A stretch of 32,000 nucleotides of DNA from Candidatus Harpocratesius repetitus. GTDB taxonomy: Archaea; Asgardarchaeota; Lokiarchaeia; Sigyniarchaeales; Promethearchaeaceae. Each line of letters starts with the position of its first letter. The first letter of the stretch is position 1. A program made the position numbers and the translations under genes. Location: the NCBI GenBank assembly GCA_021498095.1, contig JAIZWK010000001.1, forward strand, positions 3,960,001 through 3,992,000, written 5' to 3'. The notes beneath the pieces were generated by a model. That model had not been told where the DNA came from. It did no database searches and saw only the letters and a list, made by a program, of their open reading frames with translations. Shown here in pieces: positions 23,342-29,800 of this stretch.

Positions 23342-24217
23342 TTGATTTTGAAAATTGAAGTTTTTGAAAGAATCCAAAATGAAAATTTGGACATGGTCAA
23401 ATTTGTGCTCGATGGTGTTGGTGTAGAATTAGCCAACGCTTTTCGACGAATAATTTTGACCGAAGTTCCAACTATGGCAATCACAGAAGTTCTCTTTGTC
23501 GAAAATGATACGGTTTTATATGATGAAATGATTGCCCATCGATTAGGTCTAATTCCCTTAACAACGGATTTAAAGAATTATAATCTTCCCGAAGAATGTT
23601 CATGTGGTGGTCAAGGTTGTACTTTATGCCAAGCCCAATTAATGTGTGAAGTTCATGCAGAGAATGAACAAAAACACGTTTATTCCCGTGATTTAGAGTC
23701 CTTAGATCCAAAAATTCATCCTGTTAACGAAAATTACTTAATTGCAGAATTAGGAAAGCGAACATCATTAGTATTTGAAGCTTACGCCCAATTAGGACGT
23801 GGCAAGGATCATGCAAAATTTCAACCAGTTTGTTCTATTGGATATAAATATTTTCCCAAAGTAACTATTGATAATTCAAAATTTAGTAGTGAAGAAGAAA
23901 TTGACGAATTCTTGTTAAAAGATCACACTAAATTATTCAAAAAAGTTGATGGAAAATTAACACTAATCAAAGATTATTGGAAGGGTCCAGATTTTACGGA
24001 TTCAATTGCCAATCATGCACCTCCTGGAGCAGTTACAATTGATTTTGAACCAAATAAATTCGTATTTACTGTTGAAGGAACAGGTTCATTACCATTAAAA
24101 GAAATATTTACAAAAGCAATAGAAATATTTCTTGAAAAATTAGATGAATTTGAAGATCAATTAAAAAATGTAACAATTGAACCAATTATTTCTAAGATTT
24201 CCATGCGAAAACTCTAG
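23342..24217 (+). CDS. rpoD: DNA-directed RNA polymerase subunit D (Rpo3/RPB3 homolog)
   Basis: LANAFRRIILTEVPTMAI...NDTVLYDEMIAHRLGLIPL...CSCGGQGCTLC...LGRGKDHAKFQP...FTVEGTGSLP. The start may be TTG 23348 (MKIEV). Confidence 0.97.
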   Translation: MILKIEVFERIQNENLDMVKFVLDGVGVELANAFRRIILTEVPTMAITEVLFVENDTVLYDEMIAHRLGLIPLTTDLKNYNLPEECSCGGQGCTLCQAQLMCEVHAENEQKHVYSRDLESLDPKIHPVNENYLIAELGKRTSLVFEAYAQLGRGKDHAKFQPVCSIGYKYFPKVTIDNSKFSSEEEIDEFLLKDHTKLFKKVDGKLTLIKDYWKGPDFTDSIANHAPPGAVTIDFEPNKFVFTVEGTGSLPLKEIFTKAIEIFLEKLDEFEDQLKNVTIEPIISKISMRKL

Positions 24218-24546: not shown

Positions 24547-25800
24547 TTATTTCTGAGCCTTATTAGCTTTTTCTTCCAAAAAGGCCCGGGCTTCAAAGAT
24601 ATTCAGTTTAACACCTTTTTTAAGCTTGTCTTTAGCATCTTCTAAGGTTAAACGTTGAATTTCTTTTTTCATTTTCTTTTTATTTTGATATTGAGCTTTT
24701 TGGGAAATTCGTTTTCGTCGATTAATTCGTTGAGAAACTTCAATTAATCGTTGATGGTAGATATCTGCTATGAATCGATTTTCATTTAACTCACGCTGTA
24801 GATTGCGCTTTTCACGACGAAGTTCATCAATTTCTTTACTACAATCTAAATATAACAAGTGATAATTTTGTGATTCTTCAGCAGAAGTCCTTAATTCTTC
24901 ATTGATTTCTGATAAATCTTTTCGATAATTTCGAATATTATCAATTTCTTCTTTAAATGGTTTAGGTTTTCGATGTTCTTTTGTTAAATCTTGAAGAGTT
25001 CGTTCTAATTTATCGATTTCATCAACAATTGCATTTTCTTCTTTTAGTTCTAAATCTTCTGTTTCGATTTTCTTTTCTAAAAATTCTATTTTTCTACGAA
25101 TTTTCCCTATTTGGGCACCTAATTTCTTGGAATTTCTGCCTTCTTCGCTTTGTTTTGCATCATTTTTAGCTTTTTTAAGCGTAGCTCGAGAATCATTTAA
25201 TAGTTCAACCATTTTTGACTTTCGTTCTTTAATCTCTTGAACTTTCTTATTCAATTGATCCCGCTTATTTCGATAATCTAATGCTTGATTTCGAACATTG
25301 GAAATCTCAATCTGAATCTTTTTGATTTTATTTATTAAATCGCGTGTTCCATCATTATGTAAATCGCGTAATTCTTTTAATTCATTTACATCTTCAATTC
25401 TTTCAGATTCTTGAGCAATTCTCTTTAATTTTGGATTTTTGCTGAGATCTATTTTCGGTTGCTTCTGCTTTCGGCGACGTTTTTTAGATTTTTTATCTTT
25501 TTCATCAGCACTTTTAGCAGATTCATCTTGTTCCGATTTCTCATCAATAGAGATTTCCGGTTTTTCGTCAGCTTCACCTTCAACTTCTAGAGGTTCATCT
25601 TCAACTTCTTCTTCATCTTCAGTCAGTAAGGTTTCAGCTTCACGATCTAACGATTCTTGTAATTCTTCATCCTTTTCAGGATCAATATCGGCTTCTTCTT
25701 CATCATCAGATGAGTCCTTTGATTCTTCATTCTCAGTTTCAGGAGATTTCTCTTCTTCTGGTTGAGGGACTTCATCTTCCGGTTCATTCTGATTAAACAT
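24547..25800 (-). CDS. Archaeal coiled-coil protein (COG1340-like) with a long acidic N-terminal tail
   Basis: RNKRDQLNKKVQEIKE, IEFLEKKIETEDLELKEENAIVDEIDKLE and the C-terminal AKDKLKKGVKLNIFE match my recollection of COG1340. The first ~100 aa are D/E-rich. Confidence 0.75.
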   Translation of the reverse strand: MFNQNEPEDEVPQPEEEKSPETENEESKDSSDDEEEADIDPEKDEELQESLDREAETLLTEDEEEVEDEPLEVEGEADEKPEISIDEKSEQDESAKSADEKDKKSKKRRRKQKQPKIDLSKNPKLKRIAQESERIEDVNELKELRDLHNDGTRDLINKIKKIQIEISNVRNQALDYRNKRDQLNKKVQEIKERKSKMVELLNDSRATLKKAKNDAKQSEEGRNSKKLGAQIGKIRRKIEFLEKKIETEDLELKEENAIVDEIDKLERTLQDLTKEHRKPKPFKEEIDNIRNYRKDLSEINEELRTSAEESQNYHLLYLDCSKEIDELRREKRNLQRELNENRFIADIYHQRLIEVSQRINRRKRISQKAQYQNKKKMKKEIQRLTLEDAKDKLKKGVKLNIFEARAFLEEKANKAQK

Positions 25801-26009: not shown

Positions 26010-27377
26010 ATGCAACCAATAGAAGAAGGTGAAAGAGTTTATATTATTCTTGATCCTCGAAGAAAATGGATTCGATCTGTGAAATCTTCACAACAATTTC
26101 ATAGTGATAAAGGATTTCTCGAATATGAAGAAATAATTGGAAAATTACCTGGACAAACATTTTTACTAAAACCCTTTCATCGGAAAGTTGCAATATTGCG
26201 TCCACTAATAAGTGATTTTATTTTCCATATGAAACGTCAAAGTCAAATTATATATCCAGAAGATATTGGTTCTATTTTAATTTACGGGGGAGTTAACCCT
26301 AAATCAAAAATTCTTGAAGCTGGTACTGGAAGTGGAACAGTCACCAGTATTCTCGCTCATTTTTGTCAACCTAATGGTCATGTTTACAGTTTTGATATCC
26401 GTGAAACTGCACTTAATCAGGCAAAAAAAAATATTGAATTTATGGGTATGACTCACCAAACTACAGTGGATCTTGGAAACATTCTTGAAAATGACTATGA
26501 CTTTCAAAATATTAATTTTATTATGCTTGATTTAGCTACACCTTGGTTGGCAGTTCCAAAGGTCAAGAAATATCTCCACCCAACAAATGGGAGAATGTGT
26601 TTATTCAGCCCAACATTAGAACAAGTTAAAAAAAATATTAAAGCACTTTCAAGTGAGCATTTTTCATGGTATTGCACTTATGAATTATTAAAACGCTTTT
26701 ATCAAGTAAAACCTAATGCCACAAGACCAATTGGACGAATGGTTGGTCACACAGGATATCTTACATATGCTGCCTTTTATTCTTTGGACGATTCACTTCA
26801 TAACATAGGTTTTAATGACTTATACTCACCTGAAAATTTAGGAAACCTTTGTATTTACGCACAATTCACACAAAACCGGAGAATTTTAGTTGTTACTCAA
26901 AATCAATCTCCATTTAAGAAAATTTTAGAAAAAACACTTCAAAATCTTACGAATTTTACTTTTATTTTTGTATCTCAAGATACAGATGAAATATCTCAAT
27001 TAAATGAAATTGAATCTCAACAACTTTTTGATGTAATCTGTATTGATAATTGTTATTTTGAAAAATTATTCGAAAAATCGGCAGAATATCTTGAAAATGG
27101 TGGTGTATTCTGCGGAATTCATGAAAATATCGAAAAGGCGAAGGAATTCCATCTTGCCATGATTGAAGCTCACTATTACGATATCACAACATCTGAAATA
27201 ATCAAACGAGAAATTAGAATAAATGAAGTAGATAAAAAAACCACTACACATATCCTTTCAAATAAAGGTTTTTTAACACTTGGACGTAAAGTGCTAGATA
27301 AAATCGAAATTAAAGAAGGTGCACCAAAAACACCTGAAAATGTTGAAATGGTACTAGAAGTAGGAAGGAATCTTTAA
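26010..27377 (+). CDS. trmI: tRNA (adenine-N1) m1A57/58 methyltransferase TrmI, with a second degenerate MTase domain
   Basis: KRQSQIIYPEDIG, ILEAGTGSG, FDIRE, MLDLATPW, FSPTLEQV, VGHTGYL. Residues ~271-428 repeat the Rossmann domain without the SAM motif. Confidence 0.92.
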   Translation: MQPIEEGERVYIILDPRRKWIRSVKSSQQFHSDKGFLEYEEIIGKLPGQTFLLKPFHRKVAILRPLISDFIFHMKRQSQIIYPEDIGSILIYGGVNPKSKILEAGTGSGTVTSILAHFCQPNGHVYSFDIRETALNQAKKNIEFMGMTHQTTVDLGNILENDYDFQNINFIMLDLATPWLAVPKVKKYLHPTNGRMCLFSPTLEQVKKNIKALSSEHFSWYCTYELLKRFYQVKPNATRPIGRMVGHTGYLTYAAFYSLDDSLHNIGFNDLYSPENLGNLCIYAQFTQNRRILVVTQNQSPFKKILEKTLQNLTNFTFIFVSQDTDEISQLNEIESQQLFDVICIDNCYFEKLFEKSAEYLENGGVFCGIHENIEKAKEFHLAMIEAHYYDITTSEIIKREIRINEVDKKTTTHILSNKGFLTLGRKVLDKIEIKEGAPKTPENVEMVLEVGRNL

Positions 27378-27380
27378 AAA

Positions 27381-28034
27381 TTATAATATTTTTAATGGCA
27401 AATGCATTCTTAAATCCGCTACACTTGAAATTATTAAATCCGGCTTCAATTTTGAGAAATATTCAACCGAACGAGAAGAACATACAGCAATAGTTCTTGT
27501 TCCTGCAGCTATTCCAGCTATGATATCATATGGCGAATCGCCAATCATCACACAACGTGGAGCTGGCAGATTCAGTAAAGAAAGTGCTTTTTCAATCATT
27601 TCCGGATCAGGTTTAGCTTTCTTTATATCATCAATCCCAATATAACCAATTGATAAATCATTCCAATGATTCACTTCTATCATTTTAGCAATAACTCTAT
27701 TAAAATTGTTACTGACGAAAATGATTTTCCCATATTTTTTTGAAATTTCTTCTAAAATATCGTTTACACCTTCAAATACTGCAATTTTTTCAATTTCATT
27801 TAATAAAAAATCAGTTTTTACTTCAGTAATATGTTGTATTGTCGAATGGTCTACATTATTACCTGCTAAATTGCGACAAATTTGCGCAGTTTTCAAACCA
27901 AACTGGGATGTAATTTCTTCATCACTCTTAAATATACCATATTCACGCAATGCTCTTCGCCATGCTCTTAGATGAGCAATATTAGATTCTAAAAGAGTTC
28001 CATCAATATCAAAAATATATCCTTTTATCTCCAT
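27381..28034 (-). CDS. HAD-superfamily hydrolase (subfamily IA, phosphoglycolate phosphatase/beta-PGM-like)
   Basis: Motif I FDIDGTL, motif II VSN, motif III KKAKPDPE, motif IV MIGDSPYD. Confidence 0.93.
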   Translation of the reverse strand: MEIKGYIFDIDGTLLESNIAHLRAWRRALREYGIFKSDEEITSQFGLKTAQICRNLAGNNVDHSTIQHITEVKTDFLLNEIEKIAVFEGVNDILEEISKKYGKIIFVSNNFNRVIAKMIEVNHWNDLSIGYIGIDDIKKAKPDPEMIEKALSLLNLPAPRCVMIGDSPYDIIAGIAAGTRTIAVCSSRSVEYFSKLKPDLIISSVADLRMHLPLKIL

Positions 28035-28192: not shown

Positions 28193-29659
28193 TTACTCAT
28201 CCATTGGAATCTCTAATTTATGTAATTTTTCTTTTAACAACTTAATTTCATCAATTCTTTCTCTCTTTCGCTTTTCATATTCTTCAAGATCTTCTGCTTT
28301 AATTTTAGTGAGTGAAATTCCACGGTTTATTGATTCCATTAGTTCGCTTATCACATCTAACTTATATTTTAATTGTGAAATCTCCTTCATTCGTTTTTCT
28401 TTTTCTTGCTTAAGTTGATTCATTTCTTCAGAATCAATTTGCTCCAGCATAGCACCATCTTTAACTTTTTTCATTAATTCATCCAAAACATTAAGATGGC
28501 TTGATAAATGTGCAATTTCTGCTTGACGACCTAATTTATTATATTCATGTTCTTGGATCTCTTTTATCGAAATACTTTGTAATTTAGGCATTGATTCAAT
28601 TTCCTTCATTAATTCTACGCTTAAATCCATTTTAGCAAGGATATTTCCTTTTAAGCGCTGAATTGCCTGTAAACGCTCGGCTTTATATTTTTCATATGCT
28701 TCTTTTTCAGCTGGATCTGGTGGAGTTAATTGCTTTTCTTGAATTTCTTGAAATAATTGAGGTATTTTTTCAATTTTTTCTTTTAAACCAGTAATCTCTT
28801 GGAATTTTTTTACTTTTTCTGGATCTAATCGATCGAAATAAGCTGAAGCAATCTCAAATTTTTCTAACAATTCATTTCTTATTTCTGTCCGCTGTTCATG
28901 AGAAACTTCAAGAGTTGATACAATATCATCTAATAATTTATCAGCCATCTCAATCTTAGATTTCAAATTTGAAATTTCATCTAAACGTTCTTGCCGATGG
29001 ATTTCATATTCTTTTTTTGCATTTTCATCGACTTTTTTTAAAATTGGAGGTGCAGCTTCAATCTCTTTTAAAAGTGAGCCAAAATTTTGAAGATGTTTTT
29101 CAGCTTCTTTAAGATCCTCAATTCTTTTCTTTTTAGCTTGTAAATATGCTTCTTGTTCTTGAGGATTTATTGGTGTTAAAGCATTTAATGGATTTTCAGA
29201 AATCTCATTTATAACATTTGAAAAATTCAGTAAATGCTTGTTTGCAATACGAATCATTCCTAAACGTCGATTTTTTTCTTGTTCATATTTTTCACGCTCT
29301 TTTTCATCAATAACTTTCAAAGATGTGCTATTTTGGATTTCTTTAATTAATTCCTTTGTCATATCTATTGTTTCACGTAATTTTTCAATAGATTTCAATC
29401 GTTTTTCCTTAGCTGCATTATAGATTTCTTTCTCTGTTTCAGGAATTGGAGATAGCTGGATTTGTGATTGTTGAAGTTCTTTAATTATTGATTGAGCATT
29501 ATCAAAAAGCCCTTTGAGTCTTTTTATTTCATTTTTTCGAGCTTGGCGCGCTTGTTCAACAGAATGAAGCTCTTGCTCATCAATTTTATGTAATTGTGAA
29601 CCTTCTTTAATTTCTTTTAAAAGTTTTTTCTGTTGTTCTTTTTTTTCTGGATCTTCCAT
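28193..29659 (-). CDS. Helical ~45-aa repeat protein with about ten WH2-like motifs
   Basis: ATG 29659 follows AGGTGA (the track's GTG 29671 is in the SD). Repeat consensus 'LlkEI....xL..Id..E...Ye..K..Rl..I..Lk..l'. Confidence 0.8.
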   Translation of the reverse strand: MEDPEKKEQQKKLLKEIKEGSQLHKIDEQELHSVEQARQARKNEIKRLKGLFDNAQSIIKELQQSQIQLSPIPETEKEIYNAAKEKRLKSIEKLRETIDMTKELIKEIQNSTSLKVIDEKEREKYEQEKNRRLGMIRIANKHLLNFSNVINEISENPLNALTPINPQEQEAYLQAKKKRIEDLKEAEKHLQNFGSLLKEIEAAPPILKKVDENAKKEYEIHRQERLDEISNLKSKIEMADKLLDDIVSTLEVSHEQRTEIRNELLEKFEIASAYFDRLDPEKVKKFQEITGLKEKIEKIPQLFQEIQEKQLTPPDPAEKEAYEKYKAERLQAIQRLKGNILAKMDLSVELMKEIESMPKLQSISIKEIQEHEYNKLGRQAEIAHLSSHLNVLDELMKKVKDGAMLEQIDSEEMNQLKQEKEKRMKEISQLKYKLDVISELMESINRGISLTKIKAEDLEEYEKRKRERIDEIKLLKEKLHKLEIPMDE

Positions 29660-29800
29660 TACGTTTCTCACCTTAAATTATATTTTAACAATCTTATTTC
29701 ATACATTTAATCATTTTGCCTTTGTTATTAATAAAATAAAAATATGAAAAGAAATCAACCATTAATAATCAACCACAGATAGAATGAAAATTATAGATGA

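Follow-up and report, generated by a model that had tools for sequence, protein, structure and literature searches.

How a tRNA methyltransferase assembled from four equal subunits may give way to one that combines active and inactive partners is the question raised by a gene of the Asgard archaeon Candidatus Harpocratesius repetitus. The gene lies at 26010..27377 (+) of the 32,000-nucleotide stretch analyzed here (the window; contig JAIZWK010000001.1, positions 3,960,001 to 3,992,000), and its open reading frame, stop codon included, encodes a 455-amino-acid (aa) protein (P0001) made of TrmI followed by a dead copy of its own catalytic domain. Known TrmI enzymes consist of ~250-aa subunits that form a homotetramer with four active sites (PMC5007650, PMC2952851). 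Trm6, the non-catalytic part of the eukaryotic Trm61-Trm6 enzyme, is a separate subunit with a beta-barrel, a Rossmann domain that lacks S-adenosylmethionine (SAM) and added basic tRNA-binding elements, and is thought to stem from the duplication of a TrmI-like gene (PMC5007650). An earlier reading of the window (the sequence-only reading) had described the protein as a one-chain analog of the Trm61-Trm6 pair, either as a relative of the Trm6 precursor or as an independent parallel. The answer developed below, held at a probability of roughly 0.7, is a single-chain, pseudo-heterodimeric TrmI that arose within the Promethearchaeaceae, with an active N-terminal half, a dead structural C-terminal domain and chains that pair into a pseudo-tetramer.

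Residues 1-255 make up an archaeal TrmI that is complete and has all its motifs. The Pfam family GCD14 (PF08704) matches this half at 135.2 bits (E 4.1e-39), above its cut-off of 26, and at 116 bits when the genome is searched, and the TrmI of Pyrococcus abyssi (PDB 3mb5, 3lga) can be aligned over its full length (E ~6e-38, 35% identity). In the full-length AlphaFold2 (AF2) model (predicted local distance difference test, pLDDT, 91; predicted template modeling score, pTM, 0.89), the N-terminal half contains both the beta-barrel and the class I Rossmann fold of solved TrmI structures, and Foldseek superposes it on 3mb5 with E 2.5e-26, a template modeling (TM) score of 0.91 by target and a root-mean-square deviation (rmsd) of 1.8 over 254 columns. 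The N-terminal region (26010..26204, +) includes the Pfam domain TrmI-like_N (residues 3-48) and AF2 strands at residues 9-63, and is aligned with residues 2-60 of P. abyssi TrmI. The active Rossmann-fold catalytic domain follows (residues 73-255; 26226..26774, +), matched by GCD14, 3mb5 and 3lga alike. Its SAM motif I, EAGTGSG (residues 103-109; 26316..26336, +), is invariant in the five closest homologs, and together with SFDIRE (127-132) and motif IV, MLDLATPW (172-179; 26523..26546, +), it is unchanged across close homologs; Asp174 of the catalytic pocket, within motif IV, is nearly invariant among 32 sequences. In the favored reading this half would be an active tRNA m1A57/58 (or m1A58) methyltransferase, an activity predicted from its intact motifs.

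The remainder of the chain is attached by a short linker (residues 256-270; 26775..26819, +) with one AF2 helix (259-266). Residues 271-428 (26820..27293, +) are a true copy of the catalytic domain of TrmI, because comparisons within the protein and searches outside it lead to the same family. BLASTP of residues 60-268 against 262-455 yields 21% identity over 171 columns (E 4e-4, a single comparison), and hhalign of five C-terminal domains against five N-terminal domains gives a probability of 93.3% and E 2.7e-7 over 158 columns. All six pairs of segments in which the sequence-only reading saw a likeness to the catalytic domain are recovered by BLASTP, hhalign and MAFFT. When a profile of 19 C-terminal domains is run against the PDB, the significant matches are TrmI only (1yb2, 9.8e-9; 3mb5, 9.3e-6), TRMT61A being weak, and no unrelated class of methyltransferase appears. 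A five-sequence C-domain profile, searched exhaustively against 1.84 billion representative proteins, retrieves 35 proteins at E <=1e-3, all of them fused forms or their fragments or plain ~250-aa TrmI, the latter at E 2.8e-8. The C-domain profile also matches 288 of 400 Asgard genomes; every match inspected outside the fused group is a plain TrmI, and on plain TrmI in related genomes the per-genome E value runs from 1e-13 to 1e-20. GCD14 itself matches 8 of 10 C-domains, two above the gathering score, the window's own C-domain remaining under the cut-off at 13.3 bits. The language-model clusters nearest the C-domain are all GCD14 (a lead only). In AF2 the domain reaches a pLDDT of 82 when modeled alone and 91 in the full-length model. 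Short matches among the 1.84 billion proteins (P0011, P0014 and others) were considered as free-standing C-domain genes and rejected: they begin within the N-domain or without a start codon, and P0011 continues directly from an N-domain end. No standalone form is claimed, since these matches look like fragments of fused genes.

The copy has lost what a methyltransferase needs to hold its cofactor. In the joint alignment the motif I string EAGTGSG (103-109) is replaced by VVTQNQS (residues 294-300; 26889..26909, +), so that the glycine loop is gone as the sequence-only reading had stated; relatives carry other glycine-free strings, and the stretch is variable among 19 C-domains. The acid of motif II is absent, and ~20 residues around beta3 and motif III are deleted. 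At the former motif IV, ICIDNCYF (residues 343-350; 27036..27059, +), Asp346 is retained and nearly invariant and the PW pair is gone. Because SAM motifs I-III are absent, the C-domain is, judged by its motifs, not an active methyltransferase member. The proposed duplication of the protein's own catalytic domain with loss of these motifs is thus borne out by the alignments and by the phylogeny described below.

Other parts of the domain have been kept. N276 and G278 (in YSPENxG), L293, D346, E375, K378, E396, I398, R400, G420, G425-R426-K427, D430 and E443 are nearly invariant in 19 C-domains; those from outside the window's genus are otherwise 22-33% identical to the window's. Since these columns persist at so low an overall identity, the alignment shows the C-domain to be under purifying selection; the available DNA pairs have 53% amino-acid identity in this domain. 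The elements toward its end are IExxK (E375, K378), EIIKR (E396, I398, R400), the loop 408-418 and GFLTLGRK (419-427), at 27120..27290 (+). In P. abyssi TrmI, contacts of alpha3-alpha3, alpha2-alpha3 and beta6-beta6 and an alpha2-beta7 salt bridge keep the tight dimer together, and the tetramer depends on a beta-barrel formed by protruding regions and on a Cys196-Cys233 bridge between dimers (PMC2952851). In the alignment, what is conserved in the C-domain corresponds to alpha3 (YSPENxG), beta6 (ELIKR), beta7 (GYITxGRK), the IExxK turn and the protruding region. Because these are the elements with which TrmI subunits touch each other, selection appears to have kept the subunit contacts and discarded the cofactor pocket. 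The surface has changed as well: among 13 homologs the C-domain has a net charge of -1 to -11 and a pI of 4.7-6.2, catalytic domains having a pI of about 8.5. In neither the alignment nor the AF2 secondary structure is there a second beta-barrel ahead of the C-domain, only the 15-residue helical linker.

The C-terminal tail (residues 429-455; 27294..27374, +) is modeled with a pLDDT <50 for residues 446-455. Most fused TrmI of the same clade (L007, L009-L011, P0006-P0014) end with EFVExxLDVG followed by (E/K)K(I/V)DYANL(R/K)E; in the window's genus E.VEMVLEVG is retained and the IDYANL end is lost. Plain TrmI of the neighboring family has a different C-terminus, NPYRExKP...EFxxLxGMPLRG. The recurring tail of the fused proteins may be a short linear motif.

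The fusion extends beyond this genome. The sequence-only reading had supposed an Asgard host, and this assignment holds, because the closest named relative of the protein belongs to Candidatus Harpocratesius sp. (Promethearchaeaceae, Promethearchaeota; 90% identity overall, 86% in the C-terminal domain; annotated as tRNA (adenine-N1)-methyltransferase). Of the 12 other matched genomes of its family (f1), 8 have the fusion, as open frames of 454-504 aa in genera g1, g3, g5 and g6. Plain TrmI (~285 aa) occurs in genera g2 and g7 of the same family and in all f3 genomes listed; the frames listed for the neighboring family measure 245-352 aa, and every frame listed for the other Asgard families is plain-sized. 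Two of the fused proteins come from cultured organisms: the sequence from genome G142 is the same as QEE15755.1 (Promethearchaeum syntrophicum MK-D1), and the one from G137 the same as UYP47764.1 (Ca. Lokiarchaeum ossiferum).

In a tree of 62 catalytic-domain rows (IQ-TREE, LG+C20 with posterior mean site frequencies, PMSF), the 13 C-domains of this group, referred to as old, group in a single clade (100/99*) whose stem is long (1.9), within the Promethearchaeales TrmI clade (100/99*). There a polytomy joins them to their own N-domains (100/99*), the plain TrmI of the same family and the plain TrmI of f3. The C clade branches in the same order as the N clade, and forcing N- and C-domains together costs 0.8 log-likelihood units (lnL; p 0.48 in the approximately unbiased, AU, test). 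Distances among C-domains are 3.4 times those among N-domains, and the paired values are correlated (r 0.84). Because there is a single C clade whose topology mirrors that of the N-domains, together with the cheap constraint and the correlated distances, the tree suggests that the domain was duplicated once and then passed on vertically along with the N-domain. The duplication would, in the favored reading of this distribution, have arisen within the Promethearchaeaceae (Lokiarchaeia).

A second group of fused proteins, from metagenomes, is younger. In P0017 (488 aa, metagenome assembly GCA_040960995.1) the N- and C-terminal catalytic domains are still 60% identical (E 9e-79); its relatives include the fused P0048, P0049 and P0050 (486-490 aa) and the plain P0051-P0053 (~284 aa). 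All N-copies of this clade carry EAGTGSG. Motif I of the C-copies reads EAHTGSG (P0050), AACTGNG, EVGNGNG or VASNGNR, and motifs II and IV decay in step; the C-copy of P0050, with motifs II and IV present, is nearly intact. The architecture is that of the old clade, with the duplication boundary at alpha2/alpha3 and the motif I glycines substituted in the C-copy only. Unlike the old C-domains, the young C-copies remain 54-75% identical to N-copies and plain relatives, keep motifs II and IV in part, and fall in a separate starred clade with plain relatives. In the second tree the four of them cluster together (100/98*), nested with their own N-copies and plain relatives in a starred clade (100/99*) apart from the starred group (97/96*) that contains the old C-domains. 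Uniting all C-domains, old and young, in a single clade lowers lnL by 10.2-10.6 and is not rejected by the AU test (p 0.30). Two independent duplications are therefore favored, not proven, because of the starred branches and parsimony. A search with P0050 found no member of the young type in the 400 sampled Asgard genomes. Upstream of one young fused gene (L041 880-2346) lies a low-complexity open reading frame rich in Pro, Ala and Thr (L041 1-474, -), built of tandem APDAA(V/I)VTP repeats.

The architecture of an active and an inactive TrmI-type unit in one chain, as the sequence-only reading had it, is supported by these data, and a predicted assembly suggests how such chains may combine. 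Complex prediction with two full-length chains (32-row alignment, three runs) gives a homodimer with an ipSAE of 0.77 (runs 0.76-0.78), the best control reaching 0.00; among proteins of known structure, 20 of 30 that were solved as pairs of one chain reach this mark, and 1 of 23 single-chain proteins does. At least 78% of the contacts recur between runs, with a partner pLDDT of at least 85. The predicted interface between chains comprises N-domain residues 201-204, 229 and 236-247 and the equivalent C-domain residues 373-375, 398 and 409-419; on the N-domain side it involves SPTLEQ (200-205), R229 and the loop NATRPIGRMVGH (236-247), at 26607..26750 (+). The best contact pairs join residue 237 or 238 with 202-204; in the alignment with P. 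abyssi TrmI, T202 falls on Cys196 and A237 on Cys233. Because the best pairs equal the Cys233-Cys196 positions, the predicted chain-chain contact would be the dimer-dimer contact of TrmI.

With the dimer-dimer contact already assigned to the pairing of chains, the N/C pair within each chain should most likely stand for the tight dimer of TrmI, as the choice of conserved elements also suggests. The linker geometry fits this arrangement: the duplicated unit begins at alpha2, as is clear in the young clade, and since the end of beta7 in TrmI abuts the alpha2 of the partner subunit, 15 residues suffice to lead from beta7 into the new alpha2/alpha3. The proposed history would thus start with a tandem intragenic duplication of helices alpha2/alpha3 and the Rossmann domain. 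The copy would then have lost SAM motifs I-III and ~20 residues around beta3, the elements that join subunits remaining in place, and would have come to fill the position of the second protomer of the tight dimer within its own chain. Two such chains, pairing through the normal dimer-dimer contact as predicted, would give a pseudo-tetramer in which active sites and beta-barrels number two each, not four. The dead domain would probably be a built-in structural subunit rather than a second enzyme; being acidic and barrel-less, it probably has a smaller share in tRNA binding than Trm6.

Several points weigh against this model. Since TrmI tetramer structures are already solved, the score of the dimer may reflect likeness to them instead of being independent evidence. 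The assignment of the N/C pair to the tight dimer comes from elimination and from the conserved elements. A ligand or a partner, and not the fold, could be the reason why Asp346 and other polar residues are conserved, and the acidic surface (pI 4.7-6.2) may mean that the domain acts otherwise than Trm6. The last two points are also the basis of a different explanation, in which the C-domain would be mainly a regulatory, ligand-binding or partner-binding module that controls the methyltransferase through its degenerate pocket or acidic tail. The near invariance of Asp346 and several polar residues, the EFVExxLDVG...KIDYANL sequence that most homologs keep after the domain, and a surface unlike an RNA-binding one would all suit such a role. 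However, the motifs I-III that line the pocket vary among C-domains, the conserved residues coincide with TrmI subunit contacts and the predicted interface, and the window's own clade lacks the IDYANL tail, so that a mainly regulatory role is unlikely, if still worth bearing in mind. More improbable is that the domain is a decaying, functionless remnant or still a weak enzyme. It evolves 3.4 times faster than the N-domain, and the young copy in P0050 is nearly intact; against this, the frame is open in all members of a deep, multi-genus clade, nearly invariant columns survive at 22-33% identity, and the C tree mirrors the N tree. Catalysis in the old clade is implausible because neither the glycine loop nor motif II or III is left.

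The remaining alternative concerns Trm6 itself, and would make the C-domain an ortholog or direct relative of the Trm6 (Gcd10) precursor, the eukaryotic two-subunit enzyme having arisen from this Asgard fusion by gene fission. Like Trm6, the C-domain is a TrmI-type Rossmann domain without SAM motifs, its long stem is weakly anchored in the tree, and the AU tests reject little. In VIA-align the C-domain model finds yeast Trm6 (5erg_A) at the top (Z 14.3, rmsd 3.5, 161 residues aligned), yet the followers come to a near tie with it (human TRMT6 5ccb_B, Z 13.0; CbiT, 13.1; TrmI 1o54, 13.0, and 3lga, 12.6), TrmI and CbiT trail by only ~1 Z unit, and in Foldseek it is TrmI that comes first. The structural likeness to Trm6 is read as convergence or a tie. 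On the other side, the C-domains nest in Promethearchaeales TrmI and mirror their own N-domains, and the fusion is absent from the sister genera, the neighboring family and the other Asgard families, where the frames listed are plain-sized. The Pfam family Gcd10p (PF04189) matches 0 of the 10 C-domains at E up to 10, of which GCD14 matches eight; likewise, PDB profile searches with the C-domain yield TrmI and TRMT61A and no Trm6 chain at E up to 10. In the organism's own genome the best Gcd10p match (E 0.63, elsewhere in the genome) is at chance level, and no Gcd10p exceeds the cut-off in any of 400 Asgard genomes, a search whose control set held no eukaryote, so that its sensitivity was not positively controlled. 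The C-domain is, moreover, acidic and without the beta-barrel that Trm6 keeps (PMC5007650). Kinship with the Trm6 precursor, one of the two origins offered by the sequence-only reading, is hence scarcely credible. A related scenario, in which an Asgard TrmI with its catalytic domain already duplicated and inactivated in one chain was later split and so gave rise to Trm6, the fusion of Lokiarchaeia being a surviving relative of that intermediate, is hardly less remote. The evidence favors the other origin, an independent parallel: the grouping of the C-domains beside their own N-domains speaks against homology to Trm6 and leaves the analogy intact. More likely than either is that the passage from a four-site homotetramer to a two-site pseudo-heterotetramer took place at least twice in Asgard TrmI.

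The single-chain, pseudo-heterodimeric TrmI can thus be set between known systems. Like the TrmI of 3mb5/3lga, 2pwy and 1i9g, it has a full member of the family in its N-terminal 255 residues, its extra domain comes from the same family, and the predicted contact between chains is the dimer-dimer contact; unlike them, each chain holds an active and a dead Rossmann domain, and the predicted assembly is a dimer of chains with two active sites. With Trm61-Trm6 (GCD14-GCD10, TRMT61A-TRMT6; 5eqj/5erg, 5ccb) it shares the combination of an active TrmI-type unit and a SAM-less paralog, two catalytic centers per assembly (predicted for the fusion) and an origin by TrmI-like duplication. In contrast to Trm6, which is separate, retains the barrel, carries arm insertions and basic surfaces and belongs to Gcd10p, the Lokiarchaeial C-domain is fused, barrel-less and acidic, belongs with GCD14 and branches inside Lokiarchaeial TrmI. 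The fused TrmI is therefore, in the favored reading, a parallel to or analog of Trm61/Trm6 and not the ancestor of Trm6. Tandem methyltransferases of the PRMT7 type offer another comparison, since they carry an active and a degenerate module in one chain and so form a pseudo-dimer. The two cases have in common an intragenic duplication of the module, a second copy without cofactor binding and an intramolecular mimic of the homodimer of the family; PRMT7 belongs to another methyltransferase family, modifies protein arginine, is eukaryotic and is unrelated by descent.

The fused gene is the only TrmI-family gene that the GCD14 hidden Markov model detects in the 4.36-Mb single-contig genome. The sequencing runs listed for it comprise three of DNA, one of which may be the source sample, and none of RNA. 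A second, weak GCD14 match (L002) was rejected as a TrmI paralog, being a protein-L-isoaspartate methyltransferase (PCMT). The neighbors are the RNA polymerase subunit Rpo3/D (23342-24217, +), a 417-aa charged coiled-coil protein without a Pfam match (24547-25800, -), a HAD hydrolase (27381-28034, -) and a repetitive coiled-coil protein (28193-29671, -). The gene of the charged coiled-coil protein divergently adjoins trmI here and in two other Promethearchaeales genomes (L013 174-1103; L016 2825-3589), a case of conserved synteny. The repetitive protein (492 aa) is a highly repetitive, Glu/Lys-rich coiled coil with recurring L..I.. and EKE.YE patterns and likewise has no Pfam match.

The fused proteins carry the label hypothetical or that of a plain tRNA (adenine-N1)-methyltransferase, an annotation which this analysis corrects. 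The fused architecture is unmentioned in the literature searched, which held nothing on Trm6/Trm61 in Asgard archaea or on TrmI in Lokiarchaeota. What appears to be new is a TrmI variant fused to its own inactivated catalytic domain, probably a two-site pseudo-tetramer, in part of the Promethearchaeaceae and in an unrelated younger clade. Many eukaryotic tRNA-modifying enzymes combine an active subunit with a dead paralog (Trm61/Trm6, ADAT2/3), and their bacterial and archaeal counterparts are homo-oligomers. Here the change from homo-oligomer to active/dead pair is seen inside the Asgard archaea as a fusion, in an old, fully degenerate version and in a young one at several stages of decay. 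Because both cultured Lokiarchaeia (MK-D1 and L. ossiferum) carry the old version, the fused TrmI is directly testable: its oligomeric state, the number of active sites, the stoichiometry with tRNA and the need for the dead domain are all measurable in these organisms. If the repeated shift from homotetramer to pseudo-heterotetramer is true, the route to Trm61/Trm6 would become directly testable in cultured Asgard archaea.

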